Shown here: one piece after another, positions 9,027-27,659 of the stretch | Layout of the letters: each line of letters opens with the position of its first letter | How positions within the stretch are numbered: the stretch's first letter is position 1 | From: Candidatus Saccharimonadota bacterium | GTDB taxonomy: Bacteria > Patescibacteriota > Microgenomatia > UBA1406 > GWC2-37-13 | Assembly (NCBI GenBank): GCA_016432445.1 | Contig: CP066689.1 | Location: 750,001 to 782,000 of the forward strand | Reading direction: 5' to 3' | Length of the DNA stretch: 32,000 bases | Program-made: the position numbers and the translations under genes | The notes under the pieces: model-generated | What the model saw: the letters and a program-made list of their open reading frames with translations, nothing else | Told to the model about the DNA's origin: nothing | The model's database searches: none

Positions 9027-9036
9027 AGTTTAAGTT

Positions 9037-9170
9037 AAAAAAAACCTCCTTAATTTGGGAGGGTAATGTAATTTAAGGTTTTTTAAACATTACCCCTATT
9101 TCCTAGTAAAAATAGGAATATAGTATAGTTTAAAAAATCTTTGAATTTTCATAGCCTCACAATTATAACA
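9037..9170 (-). promoter_or_regulatory. Extended -10 promoter plus structured 5' leader with terminator-like SD-sequestering hairpin for the 366-aa gene
   Basis: On the minus strand: TGTTATAAT (complement of 9162-9170). Hairpin CUAUAUUCCUA/UAGGAAAUAG (complement of ~9096-9122). 9-bp hairpin GGGUAAUGU/ACAUUACCC (9061-9069 / 9087-9095). Then CCUCC-CAAAUUAA-GGAGG (9062-9045) followed by U8 (9044-9037), 10 nt before the ATG. Confidence 0.4.
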
Positions 9171-9191
9171 CAATACGCATAAAAATACCTA

Positions 9192-9220
9192 TTGACTTTT
9201 ATTTCTTGATTCACTAGAAT
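9192..9220 (+). promoter_or_regulatory. Sigma70-type promoter P1
   Basis: TTGACT (9192-9197), 17 nt spacer, TAGAAT (9215-9220). Confidence 0.55.
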
Positions 9221-9226
9221 AAAATT

Positions 9227-9345
9227 GTTTTATGATAGTTAACATTTTTTCAGTTATTTTTACTCAACTCAAACCCTTTAAAAGGGCGGTTGATTGATGA
9301 TTGAAAAAGTGAAAGTCACCCGCCCAAGAAAGGGCGGTTTTTTTT
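9227..9345 (+). promoter_or_regulatory. Leader/sRNA module L1 (outer helix, ACCC...GGGCGG core, intrinsic terminator)
   Basis: Outer helix UUUUUCA (9246-52)/UGAAAAA (9302-08). Inner helix UCAAC (9264-68)/GUUGA (9289-93). ACCC at 9273-76 and GGGCGG at 9284-89. Terminator CCGCCC (9320-25)/GGGCGG (9332-37) plus U8 (9338-45). The internal GGGCGG can pair instead with the terminator 5' arm. Confidence 0.5.
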
Positions 9346-9466
9346 GCCTCTGTTTACGATAACAAGCGTAAGCGCAGTTGAGTATTACAGAGGCAAATCC
9401 TGCCGGAGCGAAGTTTCGACTGCGTGGATGTAAACCACGAGGCGAACCTGAGCGAAGGAGGATTTT
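9346..9466 (+). ncRNA. Unclassified ~120-nt two-hairpin structured RNA, copy A
   Basis: Hairpin 1 is GCCUCUGU (9346-53)/ACAGAGGC (9387-94) with conserved apical loop AAGCGUAAGCGCA. Hairpin 2 is AAAUCCU(G)CC (9395-9404)/GGAGGAUUU (9457-65). It encloses GAGCGAA//GAGCGAA internal loops and CGUGG-AUGUAAA-CCACG. Copy B (11079-11197) keeps both helices through compensatory changes. Confidence 0.55.
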
Positions 9467-9492
9467 GAGTTAATTATAAGTTTAAAAAATAT

Positions 9493-9684
9493 ATGGACCA
9501 GCTAAATAGTTTGGACATACCACATGTAGGCGCCGCTGAAAAGGCGGCAATTAGCAATTTTATTACCAAACACTTAAAAAGTGAAATAATACAGGATGTC
9601 ACTATAGAGATACACAAAGAAAAAAATAATCCTGATTCTTGCCAAAAAATCGATATTATTATCTTATTTAAAAATAACAATTGA
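9493..9684 (+). CDS. Doubtful small ORF (63 aa)
   Basis: ORF-track entry. No Shine-Dalgarno within 15 nt of the ATG. Its stop overlaps the -35 box of promoter P3. No family recognised. Confidence 0.25.
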   Translation: MDQLNSLDIPHVGAAEKAAISNFITKHLKSEIIQDVTIEIHKEKNNPDSCQKIDIIILFKNNN

Positions 9685-9709
9685 AATCTTTTTTCTTATC
9701 TGGTAGAAT
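9681..9709 (+). promoter_or_regulatory. Sigma70-type promoter P3
   Basis: TTGAAA (9681-9686), 17 nt spacer, TAGAAT (9704-9709). Confidence 0.55.
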
Positions 9710-9715
9710 TCAATA

Positions 9716-9831
9716 ATTCAAATGGAAAATAAAAATATTTTAGTCAGCCTTCCTCTTATTACCCTATATGGGGCGGGAAGTTGATTGACTAAAATATTTT
9801 TATCAATAACCCGCCGAAAGGCGGGCTTTTT
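9716..9831 (+). promoter_or_regulatory. Leader/sRNA module L3 (paralog of L1/L2)
   Basis: Outer helix AUUUUAGUCA (9737-46)/UGACUAAAAU (9786-95). Inner helix CUUCC (9749-53)/GGAAG (9776-80). ACCC at 9761-64 and GGGGCGGG at 9770-77. Terminator CCCGCC (9810-15)-GAAA-GGCGGG (9820-25) plus CUUUUU. Confidence 0.5.
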
Positions 9832-9838
9832 AGTATAT

Positions 9839-9915
9839 AGCACTTTTACAACACGAGCTAGATTGACCGGGAGAAATTAGGGGAGACAACCTCTCTTCTA
9901 TTCTCTCCTGGTCAA
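9839..9915 (+). promoter_or_regulatory. Conserved cassette 5' element, copy C (nested long hairpin)
   Basis: AGCACUUUUACAACACGAGCUAGA followed by hairpin UUGACCGGGAGA (9863-74)/UCUCCUGGUCAA (9904-15). The hairpin encloses GGGGAGA-CAACC-UCUCUUC. Nearly identical to 11246-11321, where the apical loop is replaced (CAACC vs UAAAA). Confidence 0.5.
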
Positions 9916-9954
9916 CAAGACAAGGGGAGAAATTTTAAAGGGAAGGAGGAAAAA

Positions 9955-10035
9955 ATGATGAACACTGTATCATTCACACCGCTGCAAGTCTATCAGATCA
10001 TGCGGGACGCCCGCAGAGCCATCGCGCGCAGATAA
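9955..10035 (+). CDS. Small ORF, 26 aa (MMNTVSFTPLQVYQIMRDARRAIARR)
   Basis: Found by hand; it is below the ORF-track size cutoff. Strong SD GGAAGGAGGA (9941-9950) lies 5 nt before ATG 9955. Visibly G+C-rich. No family recognised. Confidence 0.4.
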   Translation: MMNTVSFTPLQVYQIMRDARRAIARR

Positions 10036-10139
10036 CAATCTCGCGCAAACCCAATCGTACAGCGTAGTACAAAATGGGACAATGACGTCCACTCCAAACG
10101 ACAAATAAATCTAAAATAAGTAGGGAGGAAACAGTTTCT

Positions 10140-10694
10140 ATGATTACCACTTATCAGCATCTCGTCTGCGTCGCCGCCAAAGGTGATGTCCTAGCTGAAG
10201 AGATTCTCAAATACCTTAAAGGCAGTTTCAAGATCGCCGTAAGACTCATTGACCCGAACCATGAGAAAGCCGGACCGTTGGAAATAGTAATTTTCCAGCC
10301 AGAAGAAGGATGGCCGGGAAAAAATACTTTCACCTGCACGGCATTTTACCAGCTGGAAGAATCCACACCACAATGGGCAGCAGACAGCTTATTCCCTGTT
10401 GCCGTAAGGTTTCCCTTCGGCACTAACAAGATAAGGGAAAAACTATGGTACGCAACTGTTAACGTGGTTCGGCAAATAGAACTCTGGATCTGCAGTGATC
10501 GGCCGGTCGATACCACACCATGGGTAGGTTCACCAAAAGAACTCAGTGAAGACGTCAAAGGTAAAATCACAGTATGGCGCGCCCAGATAGACGGTATCAT
10601 GTCTCAAATCACAATCATGCCAATCCCTGACTTTCACCCTGTAAAGGAGCCAAAGTACAGTAGGAAAAGGAGCTTGGCCAGCTTAATCACCTAA
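10140..10694 (+). CDS. Orphan 184-aa protein with foreign-looking composition
   Basis: ORF-track entry with GGGAGGA 11 nt upstream. Many C/G-ending codons (gtc tgc gtc gcc gcc; cgc gcc cag) contrast with the A/T-ending codons of neighbouring genes. Trp-rich. No family recognised. Confidence 0.65.
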   Translation: MITTYQHLVCVAAKGDVLAEEILKYLKGSFKIAVRLIDPNHEKAGPLEIVIFQPEEGWPGKNTFTCTAFYQLEESTPQWAADSLFPVAVRFPFGTNKIREKLWYATVNVVRQIELWICSDRPVDTTPWVGSPKELSEDVKGKITVWRAQIDGIMSQITIMPIPDFHPVKEPKYSRKRSLASLIT

Positions 10695-10782
10695 AATTAA
10701 GACGGCAACGTCTCCTAAGGTCATTGACTAAAAGGCATCTCACGCATGATGCGTTTTTTGGTCTTTTGGCCTGCTAGCTCAA

Positions 10783-10848
10783 CAGTAGGGGATCAGCACC
10801 CAAATTACAGGTTTTACCTGTTTTTTGCCATGCTGATCCCCCCTACTT
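10783..10848 (+). terminator. Conserved cassette 3' element, copy E: terminator nested inside an 11-bp outer helix
   Basis: GGGGAUCAGCA (10788-98)/UGCUGAUCCCC (10831-41) encloses ACAGGU-UUU-ACCUGU plus U6 (10807-10826). Preceded by CUAGCUC (10774-80), the inverted match of GAGCUAG in element C. Confidence 0.55.
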
Positions 10849-10854
10849 TTTCAA

Positions 10855-10911
10855 GATTCAAGACTTGTGATTCGAAAATATTCATGAATCGTGAATCCTG
10901 AATCATGAATC
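10855..10911 (+). repeat. Low-complexity imperfect palindrome (GATTCA/TGAATC words)
   Basis: gattcaagacttgtgattcgaaaatattcatgaatcgtgaatcctgaatcatgaatc. The arms pair imperfectly. Same style as other intergenic hairpins in the window. Confidence 0.5.
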
Positions 10912-10915
10912 TCAG

Positions 10916-10944
10916 TTGACAAGAATCACCTGATTTGTTATATT
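10916..10944 (+). promoter_or_regulatory. Sigma70-type promoter P2
   Basis: TTGACA (10916-10921), 17 nt spacer, TATATT (10939-10944). Confidence 0.55.
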
Positions 10945-10950
10945 ACGTTT

Positions 10951-11076
10951 ATGGCAAATTTATCTACCTGGTATTGCTTTTTCTTTTTTACCCGCTTAGG
11001 CGGACTGGTAGATAATGAGATAAAACTCTAAGCCAATATTTCGAAAGAAACCAGCCGCCGCAAGGCGGTTTTTTTT
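10951..11076 (+). promoter_or_regulatory. Leader/sRNA module L2 (paralog of L1/L3)
   Basis: Outer helix UUAUCUACC (10960-68)/GGUAGAUAA (11007-15). U/C-rich tract. ACCC at 10990-93 and GGCGG at 10999-11003. Terminator CCGCC (11055-59)-GCAA-GGCGG (11064-68) plus U8. Confidence 0.5.
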
Positions 11077-11078
11077 AT

Positions 11079-11197
11079 GTGTCCGTTTACGGAAACAAGC
11101 GTAAGTGCAGTTTACGTATTACGGACACAAATCCTTCCGAAGCGAAGTTTCGACTGCGTGGATGTAAACCACGAGACGAACCTGAGCGAAGGAAGAT
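11079..11197 (+). ncRNA. Unclassified ~120-nt two-hairpin structured RNA, copy B
   Basis: GUGUCCGU (11079-86)/ACGGACAC (11121-28) replaces GCCUCUGU/ACAGAGGC of copy A, with every substituted position compensated (five of the eight pairs differ). Hairpin 2 closing helix CUUCC/GGAAG replaces CU(G)CC/GGAG. The core CGAAGUUUCGACUGCGUGGAUGUAAACCACGAG.CGAACCUGAGCGAAGGA is near-identical. Confidence 0.55.
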
Positions 11198-11231
11198 ATA
11201 TACGAATTATTTTCTTCACCCATAAGCATGG

Positions 11232-11259
11232 TTGACTGAAAATACAGCACTTTTACAAT
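11232..11259 (+). promoter_or_regulatory. Candidate promoter in front of cassette 2
   Basis: TTGACT (11232-37), 16 nt spacer, TACAAT (11254-59). The -10 lies inside the conserved element. The copy-C equivalent has TACAAC and no good -35. Confidence 0.4.
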
Positions 11260-11321
11260 ATGAGCTAGATTGACCAGGAGAAATTAGGGGAGATAAAATC
11301 TCTTCTACTCTCTCCTAGTCA
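11246..11321 (+). promoter_or_regulatory. Conserved cassette 5' element, copy D
   Basis: Aligns base-for-base with 9839-9915, with about 10 differences by eye over ~77 nt. Hairpin UUGACCAGGAGA (11270-81)/UCUCCUAGUCA (11311-21). Confidence 0.5.
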
Positions 11322-11441
11322 TGCCTCTTCTTGAGGGAATTAAATGGGAACGTACCCCAATATCGCATGTCGAAGAAATAGAACCCCAAGGTGAAATCGG
11401 ATTACCTCGTCACTGCGGCGTCTGGGGAAAATACTAACTCA

Positions 11442-11513
11442 AATCTAGCTCATTTCAAGGGGATCAGCTACCCAAATTACAGGTTTTACCTGTTTTTTAC
11501 CATGCTGATCCCC
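11442..11513 (+). terminator. Conserved cassette 3' element, copy F
   Basis: AAUCUAGCUCAU (11442-53) is the inverted repeat of AUGAGCUAGAUU (11260-71). GGGGAUCAGC (11459-68)/GCUGAUCCCC (11504-13) encloses ACAGGU-UUU-ACCUGU plus U-run (11479-11498). Confidence 0.55.
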
Positions 11514-11569
11514 TTAATACTTTTCTTTCAAAATTTTTGAGAAAGAAGTATCGCCAGTTATTAAAAAAA

Positions 11570-12742
11570 ATGGAAAAAAAATTACTTATATCTAAAGAAA
11601 CTCAACCATCGAAAACCATGGCCTATTTAGGACCAAACGGAACTTTTACAGAAATGGCTGCTGCCTTAGCTATGGATAAACTTGGAGGAGATATCCTTCC
11701 AATCCAAGCTAAAAACATTTCAGAGATCTTTAAAATGGTAGCTGATGGAACAACGGAACTAGGAATAGTACCGATTGAAAACTCTACGGATGGACCGGTT
11801 GGAGATACTTTAAAGAATCTCACCGATTTTGAGGGCACTTTTATTGGCGAAGTCGCCATTCCTATAAGTCATTCTCTATATTACCAGAGTGCCTGGCTAG
11901 TACAACACGTCGCCTCTAAAGATACTGCTTTAAGACAATGTCAAAAACATATCTCCAAATACCTCCCTGGACGCAATCTAATGAATGTCGATAGTACAGC
12001 CCTTGCTGTCCAAATGGCGGCTGCAGACCCAACCATAGCTGCTATTGGCAGCAAAATCGCCGCTGAAGCTCTTGGCCTTACTGAAAAATTTTGGCGAGTT
12101 GACGGAGTGGAGGATAATCCTTTAAATACGACTAGATTTGTAGTGATTTCCAAATCAAGAGAGGTGCACGAAGATCTGGAAAATAATAAAACTACTTTAC
12201 TTGTTCATATGAGAGATGAACCAGGAAGCTTAGCCAATTGTCTGCATGTTTTTTCCGAAAATAAAATTAATCTTACCCAAATTAAATCTTTTTTGAGAGA
12301 TGATCAGGGAGTCTCATTTCTTATATCAATTGATGGAGGAAACCATGAAGCTAGCGTTAAAAAAGCTTTTAATGATTTATATACTTACGCCAATTATCGA
12401 GTACTAGGATCATATGTAAAAGATGAAACAGAGTCTCAGGAAGATCAGGCAGATATCAATCAAATAGCCGACCAATTAAAAAGAGAGGCGGTAAATGGGA
12501 ATGGTATTGATCATGATGAAAGCGTTTTGGCTTTTACTCTTAAAGATGAAGTAGGCTCTTTGGAAAAAGTAGTCAGTATTTTTACCCAAAGGAAAATAAA
12601 TCTTACCCGTATCGATTCCATACCCACAGGAAGATTAAACGAATATGCATTCTATCTAGCTTTTAAAAACGGCATCCCCAACCATCAGGAACTGCTTGAT
12701 GAAGTAAAACTAGCCTGTAAAGAAATTGTGCAGATTGCTTAA
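11570..12742 (+). CDS. pheA: Prephenate dehydratase with two C-terminal ACT domains
   Basis: MAYLGPNGTFTEMAA, ...NTTRFVVI, and ACT-like TTLLVHMRDEPGSLANCLHVFSENKINLTQIKS. A second ACT-like segment is VLAFTLKDEVGSLEKVVSIFTQRKINLTRIDSIP. The start is uncertain: TTG 11537 in the track, ATG 11570, or ATG 11618 at MAYLG. Confidence 0.85.
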   Translation: MEKKLLISKETQPSKTMAYLGPNGTFTEMAAALAMDKLGGDILPIQAKNISEIFKMVADGTTELGIVPIENSTDGPVGDTLKNLTDFEGTFIGEVAIPISHSLYYQSAWLVQHVASKDTALRQCQKHISKYLPGRNLMNVDSTALAVQMAAADPTIAAIGSKIAAEALGLTEKFWRVDGVEDNPLNTTRFVVISKSREVHEDLENNKTTLLVHMRDEPGSLANCLHVFSENKINLTQIKSFLRDDQGVSFLISIDGGNHEASVKKAFNDLYTYANYRVLGSYVKDETESQEDQADINQIADQLKREAVNGNGIDHDESVLAFTLKDEVGSLEKVVSIFTQRKINLTRIDSIPTGRLNEYAFYLAFKNGIPNHQELLDEVKLACKEIVQIA

Positions 12743-25861: not shown

Positions 25862-26551
25862 ATGCAGGTAAATCCTAATATCGTTATTATCGAAACTCAT
25901 CAGGGCGCAGGAGGCGATGAATCAAAACTCTGGGCAAAAGAGCTTCTCTTGTCATATGTTAGATTTGCTCAAAGAAGAGGATTCAAATTTACTTACCTTG
26001 ATGATTATATTGTAAAAATCTCAGGAGAAAATGCATTCAATCTATATAAAAATGAAACTGGCGTTCATAGAGTTCAAAGAGTACCGGCAACCGAAAGAAA
26101 AGGCAGAATCCATACATCTACAGCTGTAATCGTCGTCCTTCCTCAAATAATTCAATCAGATATAAGAATTAACCAAGCTGACCTGGATTGGCAATTTTAC
26201 AGAAGCGGCGGCCATGGCGGACAAAACGTCAATAAGGTAGAAACAGCCGTCAGGTTAACCCATAAACCAACTGGAGTAGTCGTCACTTCAAGCCAAGAAA
26301 GATATCAGCAAGCCAACCGCCAAATTGCTCTTGAACTTTTGGCCAGTAAACTTTATCAGCTTGAGGAGGAAAAAAAGAAAGGTATGATGTTTTCATATGT
26401 TACTAATGTTGGTACCGGAGAACGCGCCGAAAAAATCCGCACTTATAACTTTCCTCAAAACAGATTAACCGACCACCGCTCCGGCAAAAGTTTTCACAAT
26501 CTGGAAGAAATTATCGAGCAGGGAAAATGGGACAAAGTCTTTGGAATTTGA
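25862..26551 (+). CDS. prfA: Peptide chain release factor 1-type protein lacking N-terminal domain 1
   Basis: 229 aa. PAT tripeptide in [18 protein letters not shown] (RF1-type PxT) and GGQ in [17 protein letters not shown]. The sequence begins at the domain-2 'AGGDES' region. Confidence 0.8.
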
Positions 26552-26992: not shown

Positions 26993-27033
26993 CTTTGGTA
27001 TACTAATTAGATCACCAAGACTTTAGGTTTATC

Positions 27034-27106
27034 TCGCCGAAGCTTTAGCGAAGGCGGATTTTAAAAATTTTCCTAAAATATCCCTCCGAAGCTTTAGCGA
27101 AGGGGG
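27034..27106 (+). promoter_or_regulatory. rplJ leader with twin GAA/GAA-loop hairpins (candidate L10 autoregulatory leader)
   Basis: (U)CGCC-GAA-GC-UUUA-GC-GAA-GGCG(G) (27034-57) and CCUCC-GAA-GC-UUUA-GC-GAA-GGGGG (27083-27106). The apical parts are identical and the closing helices differ. The second 3' arm (GGGGG) is the only SD-like sequence before ATG 27120. Confidence 0.45.
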
Positions 27107-27119
27107 AAAGTGAAACAAT

Positions 27120-27659
27120 ATGGTAAACACATCTAAAAAAAATCAGGTACAATCTTTCATTGATCTTATTGAAAAAAACAAAAACTTTGTAATAGTAAGC
27201 TTTGAAAAAACTCTCCACACAACTCTTGAATCTTTAAGAAAAGATCTCCGACAAAGCGGCGCCAAAATAAAAATCATCAAAAACAGTCTATTTCAAAAAG
27301 CTCTCAATAAAGAAGCTCTTAAAAATAAAAATCTGGAAGATCTTCAGAAAAAATTTAAGGAGCTCCAAAAAAACAGCGCTATATTAATGCTTGGAGACCA
27401 ATGGAATAAAGGATTAAGCGCTTTTTACAATTTTGCTAAGAAAGAAACGTTTTTATCATTTAAGATAGGTTTTCTTGATGATCAGGTTTATATGAATGAT
27501 GACCTTAAAAAAATAGCCCAGCTGCCGTCAAAAGAAGAACTTTTGGCAAAAGTTATAGGCGGATTGAAAACACCTATCTCCAATCTTAACTATGCTCTTA
27601 AATTTAATATGCAGAAGTTTGTTTACATTTTAACCGCAAAATCAAAGCAAACGAATTAA
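27120..27659 (+). CDS. rplJ: 50S ribosomal protein uL10
   Basis: 179 aa. Position directly upstream of rplL. ...FVIVSFEKTLHTTLESLRKDLRQSGAKIKIIKNSLFQKAL pattern. Confidence 0.8.
   Translation: MVNTSKKNQVQSFIDLIEKNKNFVIVSFEKTLHTTLESLRKDLRQSGAKIKIIKNSLFQKALNKEALKNKNLEDLQKKFKELQKNSAILMLGDQWNKGLSAFYNFAKKETFLSFKIGFLDDQVYMNDDLKKIAQLPSKEELLAKVIGGLKTPISNLNYALKFNMQKFVYILTAKSKQTN

Follow-up and report, generated by a model that had tools for sequence, protein, structure and literature searches.

Two copies of an uncatalogued, possibly ERIC-like structured intergenic element in the genome of a candidate phyla radiation bacterium

Among the hairpin-forming intergenic sequences described in bacteria, the ERIC elements (or IRU, ~127 bp) are imperfect palindromes found in transcribed intergenic regions in either orientation, with no associated gene, and they are conserved in sequence across genera at differing chromosomal positions. 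The REP, BIME and REPIN sequences are extragenic, co-transcribed hairpins of 20-40 nucleotides (nt) with GTAG/CGTC tags, which are mobilised by RAYT proteins, occur in tens to hundreds of copies, keep their stems by compensatory change and have been linked to mRNA stabilisation. The Correia (NEMIS) repeats of Neisseria are intergenic sequences of ~100-150 bp with 26-bp terminal inverted repeats and a TA duplication; present in hundreds of copies, they form hairpins in mRNA, are substrates for RNase III processing and influence how neighbouring genes are expressed. Here we describe an element of ~120 nt that occurs twice, as copy A (9346-9466) and copy B (11079-11199), in a 32,000-nt stretch of DNA (the window; contig CP066689.1, positions 750,001 to 782,000 of the forward strand) from a bacterium of the candidate phyla radiation (CPR, or Patescibacteria). 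CPR genomes are tiny and compact, and to our knowledge almost nothing is known about their non-coding elements.

The element is comparable to ERIC in being a ~120-bp imperfect palindrome that is intergenic, hairpin-forming, present in both orientations without an associated gene, and conserved in sequence between genera at sites that are not orthologous. The likeness lies in behaviour and not in homology: sequence similarity to ERIC is absent, the hosts are CPR bacteria with 1-3 copies per genome, several positions are conserved, and one long palindrome is replaced by two unlike hairpins. With REP it has in common the extragenic location and the compensated stems, and by analogy a link to mRNA stabilisation may be considered; the element is ~115 nt long, occurs twice in the 32 kb of the window and had only three further, diverged copies in 330 kb of related loci, and the short length, tags, high copy number and RAYT gene of REP were not seen here. 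It is similar to the Correia repeats in size and hairpin formation, and lacks their terminal inverted repeats, TA duplication and abundance.

Several RNA structures of single transcripts are also pertinent. The two hairpins of the E. coli ompA 5' untranslated region and the Bacillus cryIIIA STAB-SD combine one or more hairpins at the head of a message with a Shine-Dalgarno (SD)-like sequence unused for initiation, to which the GGAGGA arm of those copies that are co-directional with local transcription, and the abutment of hairpin and SD in the reversed copies, may be likened; these are single-gene features and not a dispersed family, and a stabiliser role of the element would be assigned by analogy. 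The put RNA of phage HK022 consists likewise of two adjacent hairpins of ~60-70 nt acting in cis in a leader near terminators, but put lies upstream of the terminators it suppresses, whereas the element lies directly downstream of one, has no sequence or loop similarity to put, and exists in reversed copies inconsistent with a put-like role. The apex of hairpin 2 (a 5-bp stem with the 7-nt loop AUGUAAA) is reminiscent of anticodon-arm mimics such as the E. coli thrS operator, since the loop matches six of the seven positions of the tRNA-Tyr anticodon loop CUGUAAA seen in a related locus (L016), and several co-directional copies lie in aromatic amino-acid leaders. Unlike such mimics, diverged members of the family keep YGUAR alone of the loop, most contexts are unrelated to tyrosine, and no synthetase gene is linked.

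Three further classes were compared. The window copies are without the T-box sequence (AGGGUGGNACCGCG); a T-box-like sequence follows the element only in loci L021 and L029, and even there the Rfam T-box model gave no hit. A ribosome-mediated attenuator does not describe the element, which starts past the U-tract and has no leader open reading frame (ORF) or U-tract of its own, the attenuator features belonging to the upstream units at 9192-9345 and 10916-11078. The palindrome-associated IS200/IS605 derivatives (PATE) differ in that the two hairpins of the element are dissimilar, its left flanks are only pyrimidine-rich, and no TnpA is found nearby.

The element belongs to a family of previously uncatalogued structured intergenic elements in CPR bacteria. 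We propose, with a probability of about 0.4, that the two copies are ERIC-, REP- or Correia-like elements of this clade that serve as a portable RNA processing or stabilising module.

Duplication, fold and covariation of the element

A repeat search in the window aligned 9382-9463 with 11116-11197 (82 nt, 91% identity) and 9338-9379 with 11071-11112 (42 nt, 83% identity), and a 34-nt core, GCGAAGTTTCGACTGCGTGGATGTAAACCACGAG, was found exactly twice, with a shuffle expectation of 0.00. The near-identical ~120-nt duplication noticed in an earlier note on this DNA, which was made from the letters alone, is therefore real. When the window was scanned with a covariance model (CM) of the full element, copies A and B were the only ones detected. 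The two copies have one fold in common, a pair of hairpins (copy A, -50.2 kcal/mol, z -5.9; copy B, -47.2 kcal/mol, z -6.1), and none of 200 shuffled sequences folded as well, as expected from the two-hairpin fold drawn in the note.

Hairpin 1 of copy A, the variable one (9346-9394, + strand), has in the minimum free energy fold the closing helix GCCUCUGU/ACAGAGGC and the apical loop AAGCGUAAGCGCA, and its arms coincide with an inverted repeat (9343-9353/9387-9397) of 100% complementarity. Hairpin 2, the conserved core of the family (9395-9466, + strand; CM R1, 84.1 bits, E 9e-26), is supported by the fold and by covariation in the family. It is built from a basal stem UCCU(G)CC/GGAGGA, purine internal loops GGA/GAA and GA/GA, a UUCG/CGAA helix, and a CGUGG/CCACG stem with the AUGUAAA loop on top. 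In copy B, hairpin 1 (11079-11128, + strand) is closed by GUGUCCGU/ACGGACAC and is matched by an inverted repeat at 11078-11086/11121-11129, and hairpin 2 (11129-11199, + strand; CM R1, 88.9 bits, E 2e-27) has the basal stem CUUCC/GGAAG; its core at 11142-11175 is identical to that of copy A.

Copies A and B disagree at three of the eight pairs that close hairpin 1 (C-G to U-A, C-G to G-C and U-A to C-G), each with compensation; the five changed pairs counted earlier were an overestimate. The remaining differences and identities listed at that time were all found again by copy comparison, namely UAAC/GUUG to AAAC/GUUU (U.G to A-U), CU(G)CC/GGAG to CUUCC/GGAAG, the 1-nt indel GAGUAUU versus UACGUAUU, the common apical loop AAGCGUAAG(C/U)GCA, and two GAGCGAA segments. 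In copy A, CGCAGUUGA in hairpin 1 (9373-9381) is complementary to UCGACUGCG in the core of hairpin 2 (9416-9424), and copy B retains only GCAGU/ACUGC of this pairing. The pairing is limited to the window copies and is not conserved in the family, so that it may be an alternative or tertiary pairing or a mere coincidence. A kissing interaction of hairpin 1 with the GUAAAC loop was rejected as it lacks conservation across the family.

Homologous sequences (collected as described below) provided a test of both hairpins by covariation. In an alignment of 36 sequences, 92.9% of the cells of hairpin 2 are paired, compared to 36-42% for slid partners; 10 of its 21 pairs have changed on both sides, and none of 500 shuffles was as good. 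For hairpin 1, aligned in 13 sequences of the commonest subfamily, 96.1% of the cells are paired and changes on both sides were found in 8 of 12 pairs. Both hairpins are thus strongly supported by covariation of textbook quality, and the helices predicted from two copies hold with more homologues. Hairpin 2 (~62 nt) is conserved and usually preceded by the more variable hairpin 1, to which it is dissimilar; hairpin 1 is sometimes missing, as from L036 and L049, and is replaced by a promoter in L024. The 2x2 GA/GA internal loop is invariant (31/31) and 29 of 31 sequences have GAA or AAA in the flanking loop, both being outside the search pattern, and these invariant unpaired purines take the form of sheared G.A motifs. 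As modelled, hairpin 2 (~21 bp, symmetric internal loops) would be compatible in geometry with an RNase III processing hairpin of the T7 R1.1 type.

A conserved micropeptide encoded by hairpin 2 (..FRLRGCKPRGEPERRR..) was considered and is highly improbable. A single reading frame, ..FRLRGCKPRGE.., is conserved across the core over ~20 codons, and gene callers occasionally call ORFs there. In L005, L010 and L012, however, stop codons lie directly upstream and a start codon is lacking, the changes are pairwise compensatory and not synonymous, just 8 of 5.8 billion predicted proteins contain the peptide, and the indel between the window copies disrupts any longer frame. Selection on nucleic-acid hairpins and not on a peptide, as suggested in the earlier note, is in agreement with the covariation over ~36 homologues and with the lack of a start in several members.

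A family of elements in CPR genomes

Scans of public sequences yielded ~50 related loci with ~40 distinct sequences. The exact core 24-mer was matched in 11 representative genomes: one Microgenomates, two Gottesmanbacteria, one Levybacteria, one Saccharibacteria, five metagenome-assembled genomes (MAGs) labelled "uncultured Gammaproteobacteria" (a label that could not be verified), and one "archaeon" contig. The "archaeon" contig (L014) is identical to the Levybacteria contig (L012), and the sequence of the five MAGs (L006, L008, L009, L010 and L013) looks CPR-like; both labels are probably binning or labelling errors in the public records. A degenerate pattern with the apical stem left free detected 39 metagenome loci, mostly from groundwater. 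Diverged copies with the loops ACGUAGA or UCGUAG exist as well, YGUAR being common to all; only three extra diverged copies were present in the 330 kb of fetched loci. Two copies each are found in the window, L016 and L029 (the second copy of L029 is diverged), and most representative genomes contain one canonical core. Spurious ORFs were also tried as a proxy for enlarging the family and discarded, as they yielded only 8 proteins.

In Rfam 15, the window gave no hit at the gathering score and none overlapping either copy at E values up to 10, and 20 related loci matched only rRNA, tRNA and tmRNA models; the RNA, which could not be assigned to a known family in the earlier note, thus has no match at gathering or permissive thresholds. 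Viral contigs, GenBank phages, PLSDB plasmids and 5,426 E. coli genomes contained no match to the element, and literature searches by sequence and by topic found no description of it. Absent from Rfam, the element joins a very small number of non-coding sequences for which conservation in several CPR lineages has been shown. In practice it has two effects: assemblies break at the conserved core of the repeat, as seen in those of the window's own organism, whose contigs end inside the core, and gene callers extend real genes or predict spurious ORFs because of it.

About 16 contexts are co-directional with local transcription, including the two window copies, and ~18 are reversed. In the window, the copies start directly after the T-run of a leader terminator as had been noted, at an offset of 0 nt (copy A) and 2 nt (copy B), and in seven further loci the element also directly follows a terminator. 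Among the co-directional copies, L005 has a leader and terminator upstream and hisG downstream; L009 lies after a terminator in the rpsJ-rplC gap; L020 has a leader ORF with a YYY run and its terminator on either side; L023 follows a leader and terminator ~200 nt upstream of the 16S gene; in L021 and L029 the order is leader, terminator, element, T-box-like antiterminator and tRNA-Trp; L053 is in the sufB-sufD gap; and L036 and the group of L010, L018 and L042 are located after a stop codon. The L020 leaders are apparently tandem tyrosine attenuators. The T-box-like AAGGUGG(C/U)ACCGCC plus terminator of L021 and L029 precedes a tRNA-Trp gene and not a protein gene. In L015 and L026, on a Gottesmanbacteria contig, a sequence identical to the boxA consensus of the E. 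coli rrn operons, TGCTCTTTAACAA, is located ~50 nt upstream of hairpin 1, and no rRNA gene was found near it on this contig.

In many reversed loci, hairpin 1 is within 0-5 nt of the reverse-complement SD of an opposite-strand gene. The genes concerned include those for HU, the ATP synthase c subunit (atpE), LysW, thioredoxin, a cupin, a glycosyltransferase and TasA-like secreted proteins, the identities being read from N-terminal sequences except for thioredoxin, which was assigned by a Pfam hit. Other reversed copies are between smpB and the 5' end of tmRNA (three genomes), in the tRNA-Ala/23S gap and inside a tRNA cluster. Several reversed copies have opposite-strand genes on both sides with ~20 nt to spare, and therefore could be transcribed only as the reverse complement. 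By-eye inspection of the element for a promoter serving tmRNA or the adjacent genes revealed no convincing -35/-10 pair, and an all-against-all BLASTP comparison of 560 ORFs revealed no recurrent protein family (transposase, RNA-binding protein or other) near the element.

These contexts bear on the proposal in the earlier note of a riboregulator tied to the window leaders and their cassettes, which is not supported, the contexts being unrelated and about half of them reversed relative to local transcription. The note had named a dispersed repeat without leader association as the outcome that would speak against it; this applies in half, as the family is dispersed and its contexts are many and unrelated.

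Some loci carry traces of insertion. In L016, with which L007 and L048 are identical in sequence, a 5'-truncated tRNA-Thr pseudogene that follows an intact tRNA-Thr gene has its anticodon stem split by hairpin 2 alone. The element in L022 and L050 is flanked by a direct repeat of ~50 nt that corresponds to the start codon and first 17 codons of a nucleotidyltransferase gene (GalU-like by its N-terminal sequence), and the upstream repeat copy runs into the element and terminates. In L019, L038 and L040 the element has a 17-nt direct repeat on both sides, immediately beyond which the sequence varies between strains. Flanking direct repeats are confined to three contexts (17, 46 and 51 nt) and their copies have diverged. 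The 8 nt to the left of the element are 69% pyrimidine, compared to 58% on the right, in the form of terminator T-runs or reverse-complement SD sequences, which would fit either a target preference or insertion points tolerated in very short spacers; each of these could account for the two prevailing classes of context.

Weighing a portable hairpin module against other explanations

We infer that an element of this kind would be co-transcribed with whatever flanks it. On the + strand, the window copies would form the first structured part of transcripts that read through the terminators of the preceding leaders L1 and L2 (Phe); the hairpin pair with the SD-like GGAGGA may then act as a portable processing or stabilising module, with the ompA hairpins and STAB-SD as its nearest analogues, so that the downstream message would gain a protected, leader-independent 5' end. 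The element would not be a metabolite sensor. Rather than serving these leaders as a dedicated switch, it is probably a hairpin module of a general kind with a mobile past.

Which strand is functional is a question on which the evidence points both ways, to the transcribed strand and to one fixed strand. In co-directional contexts 35 G.U pairs are present in the + fold and 21 in the reverse fold, and in reversed contexts the numbers are 43 and 59 (Fisher p = 0.02 for the split); G.U pairs thus follow the transcribed strand weakly. The SD-like GGAGG in the 3' arm, found in 9 of 16 co-directional and 0 of 18 reversed copies (p = 2e-4), is real and base-paired as noted before, and is restricted to the co-directional class. 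By contrast, both orientation classes keep the GA/GA loop and the remaining unpaired purines invariant on one and the same strand, and in 32 of 38 cases the + fold of hairpin 2 is stabler than the reverse fold. Overall, mismatches on the + strand are about equally G.U (20) and A.C (18), which favours neither view.

Several of these results weigh against the portable module. The G.U test rests on related sequences and reaches p = 0.02 only, and the invariance of the unpaired purines on one strand, which is not explained by a purely structural, orientation-free role of the RNA, suggests a strand-specific partner on RNA or single-stranded DNA (ssDNA). The copy number is low, unlike that of the classical REP, ERIC and MITE (miniature inverted-repeat transposable element) families; an inverted-repeat search detected only the arms within each hairpin and no match between the element ends, and the MITE features of terminal inverted repeats and target-site duplication of fixed length are absent. 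The apparent full invariance of the 32-nt core is partly artefactual, the search patterns having required it. The sites between smpB and tmRNA (three genomes) and at the TasA-like gene (two genomes) are kept although the genomes have diverged, which favours retention by selection over ongoing mobility.

The element could also be a dedicated cis-regulatory leader RNA, as was originally proposed, in which a protein or small ligand would bind the + strand via the sheared G.A platforms and the YGUAR loop and exert a second control step after the attenuator, for example by hiding or exposing the GGAGGA of the 3' arm. Ten copies in nine loci lie 0-3 nt after a regulated or intrinsic terminator and precede pheA, hisG, the Tyr leader, the T-box-like sequence with tRNA-Trp, rplC or 16S, and the SD-like arm confined to co-directional copies, the invariant unpaired purines and the stabler + fold of hairpin 2 would all suit such a leader. 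We nevertheless regard it as rather unlikely: about half of the family is reversed with identical strand-specific invariants, the genes that would be regulated have no pathway in common, a conserved alternative structure that would allow switching is missing, the Rfam riboswitch models do not match, and in both the window and L009 the GGAGGA is ~30 nt away from the true start codons, too distant to be the SD of the downstream genes. Recognition by a factor is the substance of another explanation, which we consider unlikely as well, that hairpin 2 is a CPR-wide module read on one strand, as RNA or ssDNA, by a putative conserved trans-acting factor. The invariant tandem sheared G.A loops and a YGUAR heptaloop mimicking the tRNA-Tyr anticodon arm would define the module, the reader might be a tRNA-binding or tRNA-modifying enzyme, a nuclease or a recombinase, and such a factor would tie the element to genes of translation and amino-acid metabolism (rRNA, tRNA, tmRNA, rplC, pheA, hisG and lysW).

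Strand-specific conservation regardless of the direction of transcription would equally be expected of an element acting at the DNA level, with ssDNA hairpins read by a recombinase, by an HUH transposase (as in IS200/IS605-like PATE) or by another DNA-binding factor and with the RNA folds as a by-product. The insertion in the tRNA pseudogene, the flanking direct repeats in three contexts, the nearly equal G.U and A.C counts and the pyrimidine-rich left flank agree with this, and tandem G.A mismatches are stable in DNA too. It appears quite unlikely, though, since no transposase or recombinase is near the element in any locus, hairpins 1 and 2 are unlike each other in contrast to IS200/IS605 ends, no target tetranucleotide is conserved, copies are few and the use of G.U pairs follows the strand that is transcribed; the rRNA-operon contexts L023 and L052 differ in orientation, so there is no fixed replication-strand bias either. 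One or two copies per genome, covarying stems, a conserved core and variable neighbours are on the other hand typical of housekeeping non-coding RNA genes, and an independent small RNA, trans-acting or protein-sequestering, could be made from its own signals or processed from longer transcripts. In L024 and L045 a good promoter (TTGAAG-17-CATAAT) occupies the usual site of hairpin 1, with its predicted start at the base of hairpin 2. This was the exception: the other reversed loci scanned have no + strand promoter placed to start at hairpin 1, and L006 and L046 have weak or distant matches only. An element that begins 0-3 nt after a terminator or abuts an SD leaves no room for signals of its own, no U-tract follows hairpin 2, and many loci are inside opposite-strand operons, which makes a small RNA gene improbable.

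Should the element be a mobile or formerly mobile structured repeat, such repeats would persist even in ~1-Mb genomes, where they would settle beside the most highly expressed genes. If a specific partner exists, the element would mark a layer of RNA processing or regulation not yet known in this uncultured clade, and if hairpin 2 is read by a trans-acting factor it would be no passive repeat but a functional element of a new class.

Surroundings of the two copies in the window

The region 9027-11536 has little coding sequence and contains, within 1.9 kb, three units (9192-9345, 9681-9831 and 10916-11078), each with a promoter, a leader ORF and an intrinsic terminator; copies A and B directly follow the first and third of the three terminators. 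In the unit upstream of copy A (9192-9345, + strand), a sigma-70-like promoter (9192-9220) precedes a leader ORF (9232-9297, MIVNIFSVIFTQLKPFKRAVD) and the intrinsic terminator (9320-9337, + strand, T-run to 9345). The unit upstream of copy B (10916-11078, + strand) is composed of a promoter (10916-10944), a leader ORF with an FFFF run (10951-11031) and an intrinsic terminator (11053-11070 plus T-run, + strand). Downstream of the copy B unit is pheA (11537-12742, + strand), which encodes a prephenate dehydratase with ACT domains (Pfam PDT, 1.4e-42; NCBIfam NF008865, 225 bits with a cutoff of 219). Since the third leader peptide (MANLSTWYCFFFFTRLGG...) has FFFF and precedes pheA, this unit is a classical Phe attenuator; in Rfam, at permissive thresholds, the window leaders show sub-threshold Phe_leader similarity only. 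Each of the three leader ORFs sits within a long hairpin that translation would open.

Two more duplicated elements accompany the copies. D2 (9835-9914 and 11242-11321, 89% identity) forms a nested hairpin, UUGACCGGGAGAA...UUCUCUCCUGGUCAA, with z about -3, and D3 (10774-10841 and 11445-11513, 98% identity over 44 nt, z -7.5) is a long GC-clamped hairpin around a small terminator-like hairpin, ACAGGUUUUACCUGUUUUUU, one copy being directly upstream of pheA. Neither D2 nor D3 is present in any fetched locus of the family. The order of the element, D2 and D3 is common to both units, the first of which has small ORFs added (63 aa; 26 and 184 aa) that gave no family match. No transposase, including Y1 transposase, was found among the window proteins.

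Elsewhere in the window, two small hairpins at 27029-27112 lie just 5' of rplJ (27120-27659) and are probably an L10 leader; the Rfam L10_leader model did not match them. A 229-aa homologue of class-I release factors is encoded at 25862-26551 and contains the RF-1 domain and only the C-terminal half of PCRF; its gene starts 40 nt past hisS, so that the usual N-terminal ~100 residues are missing.

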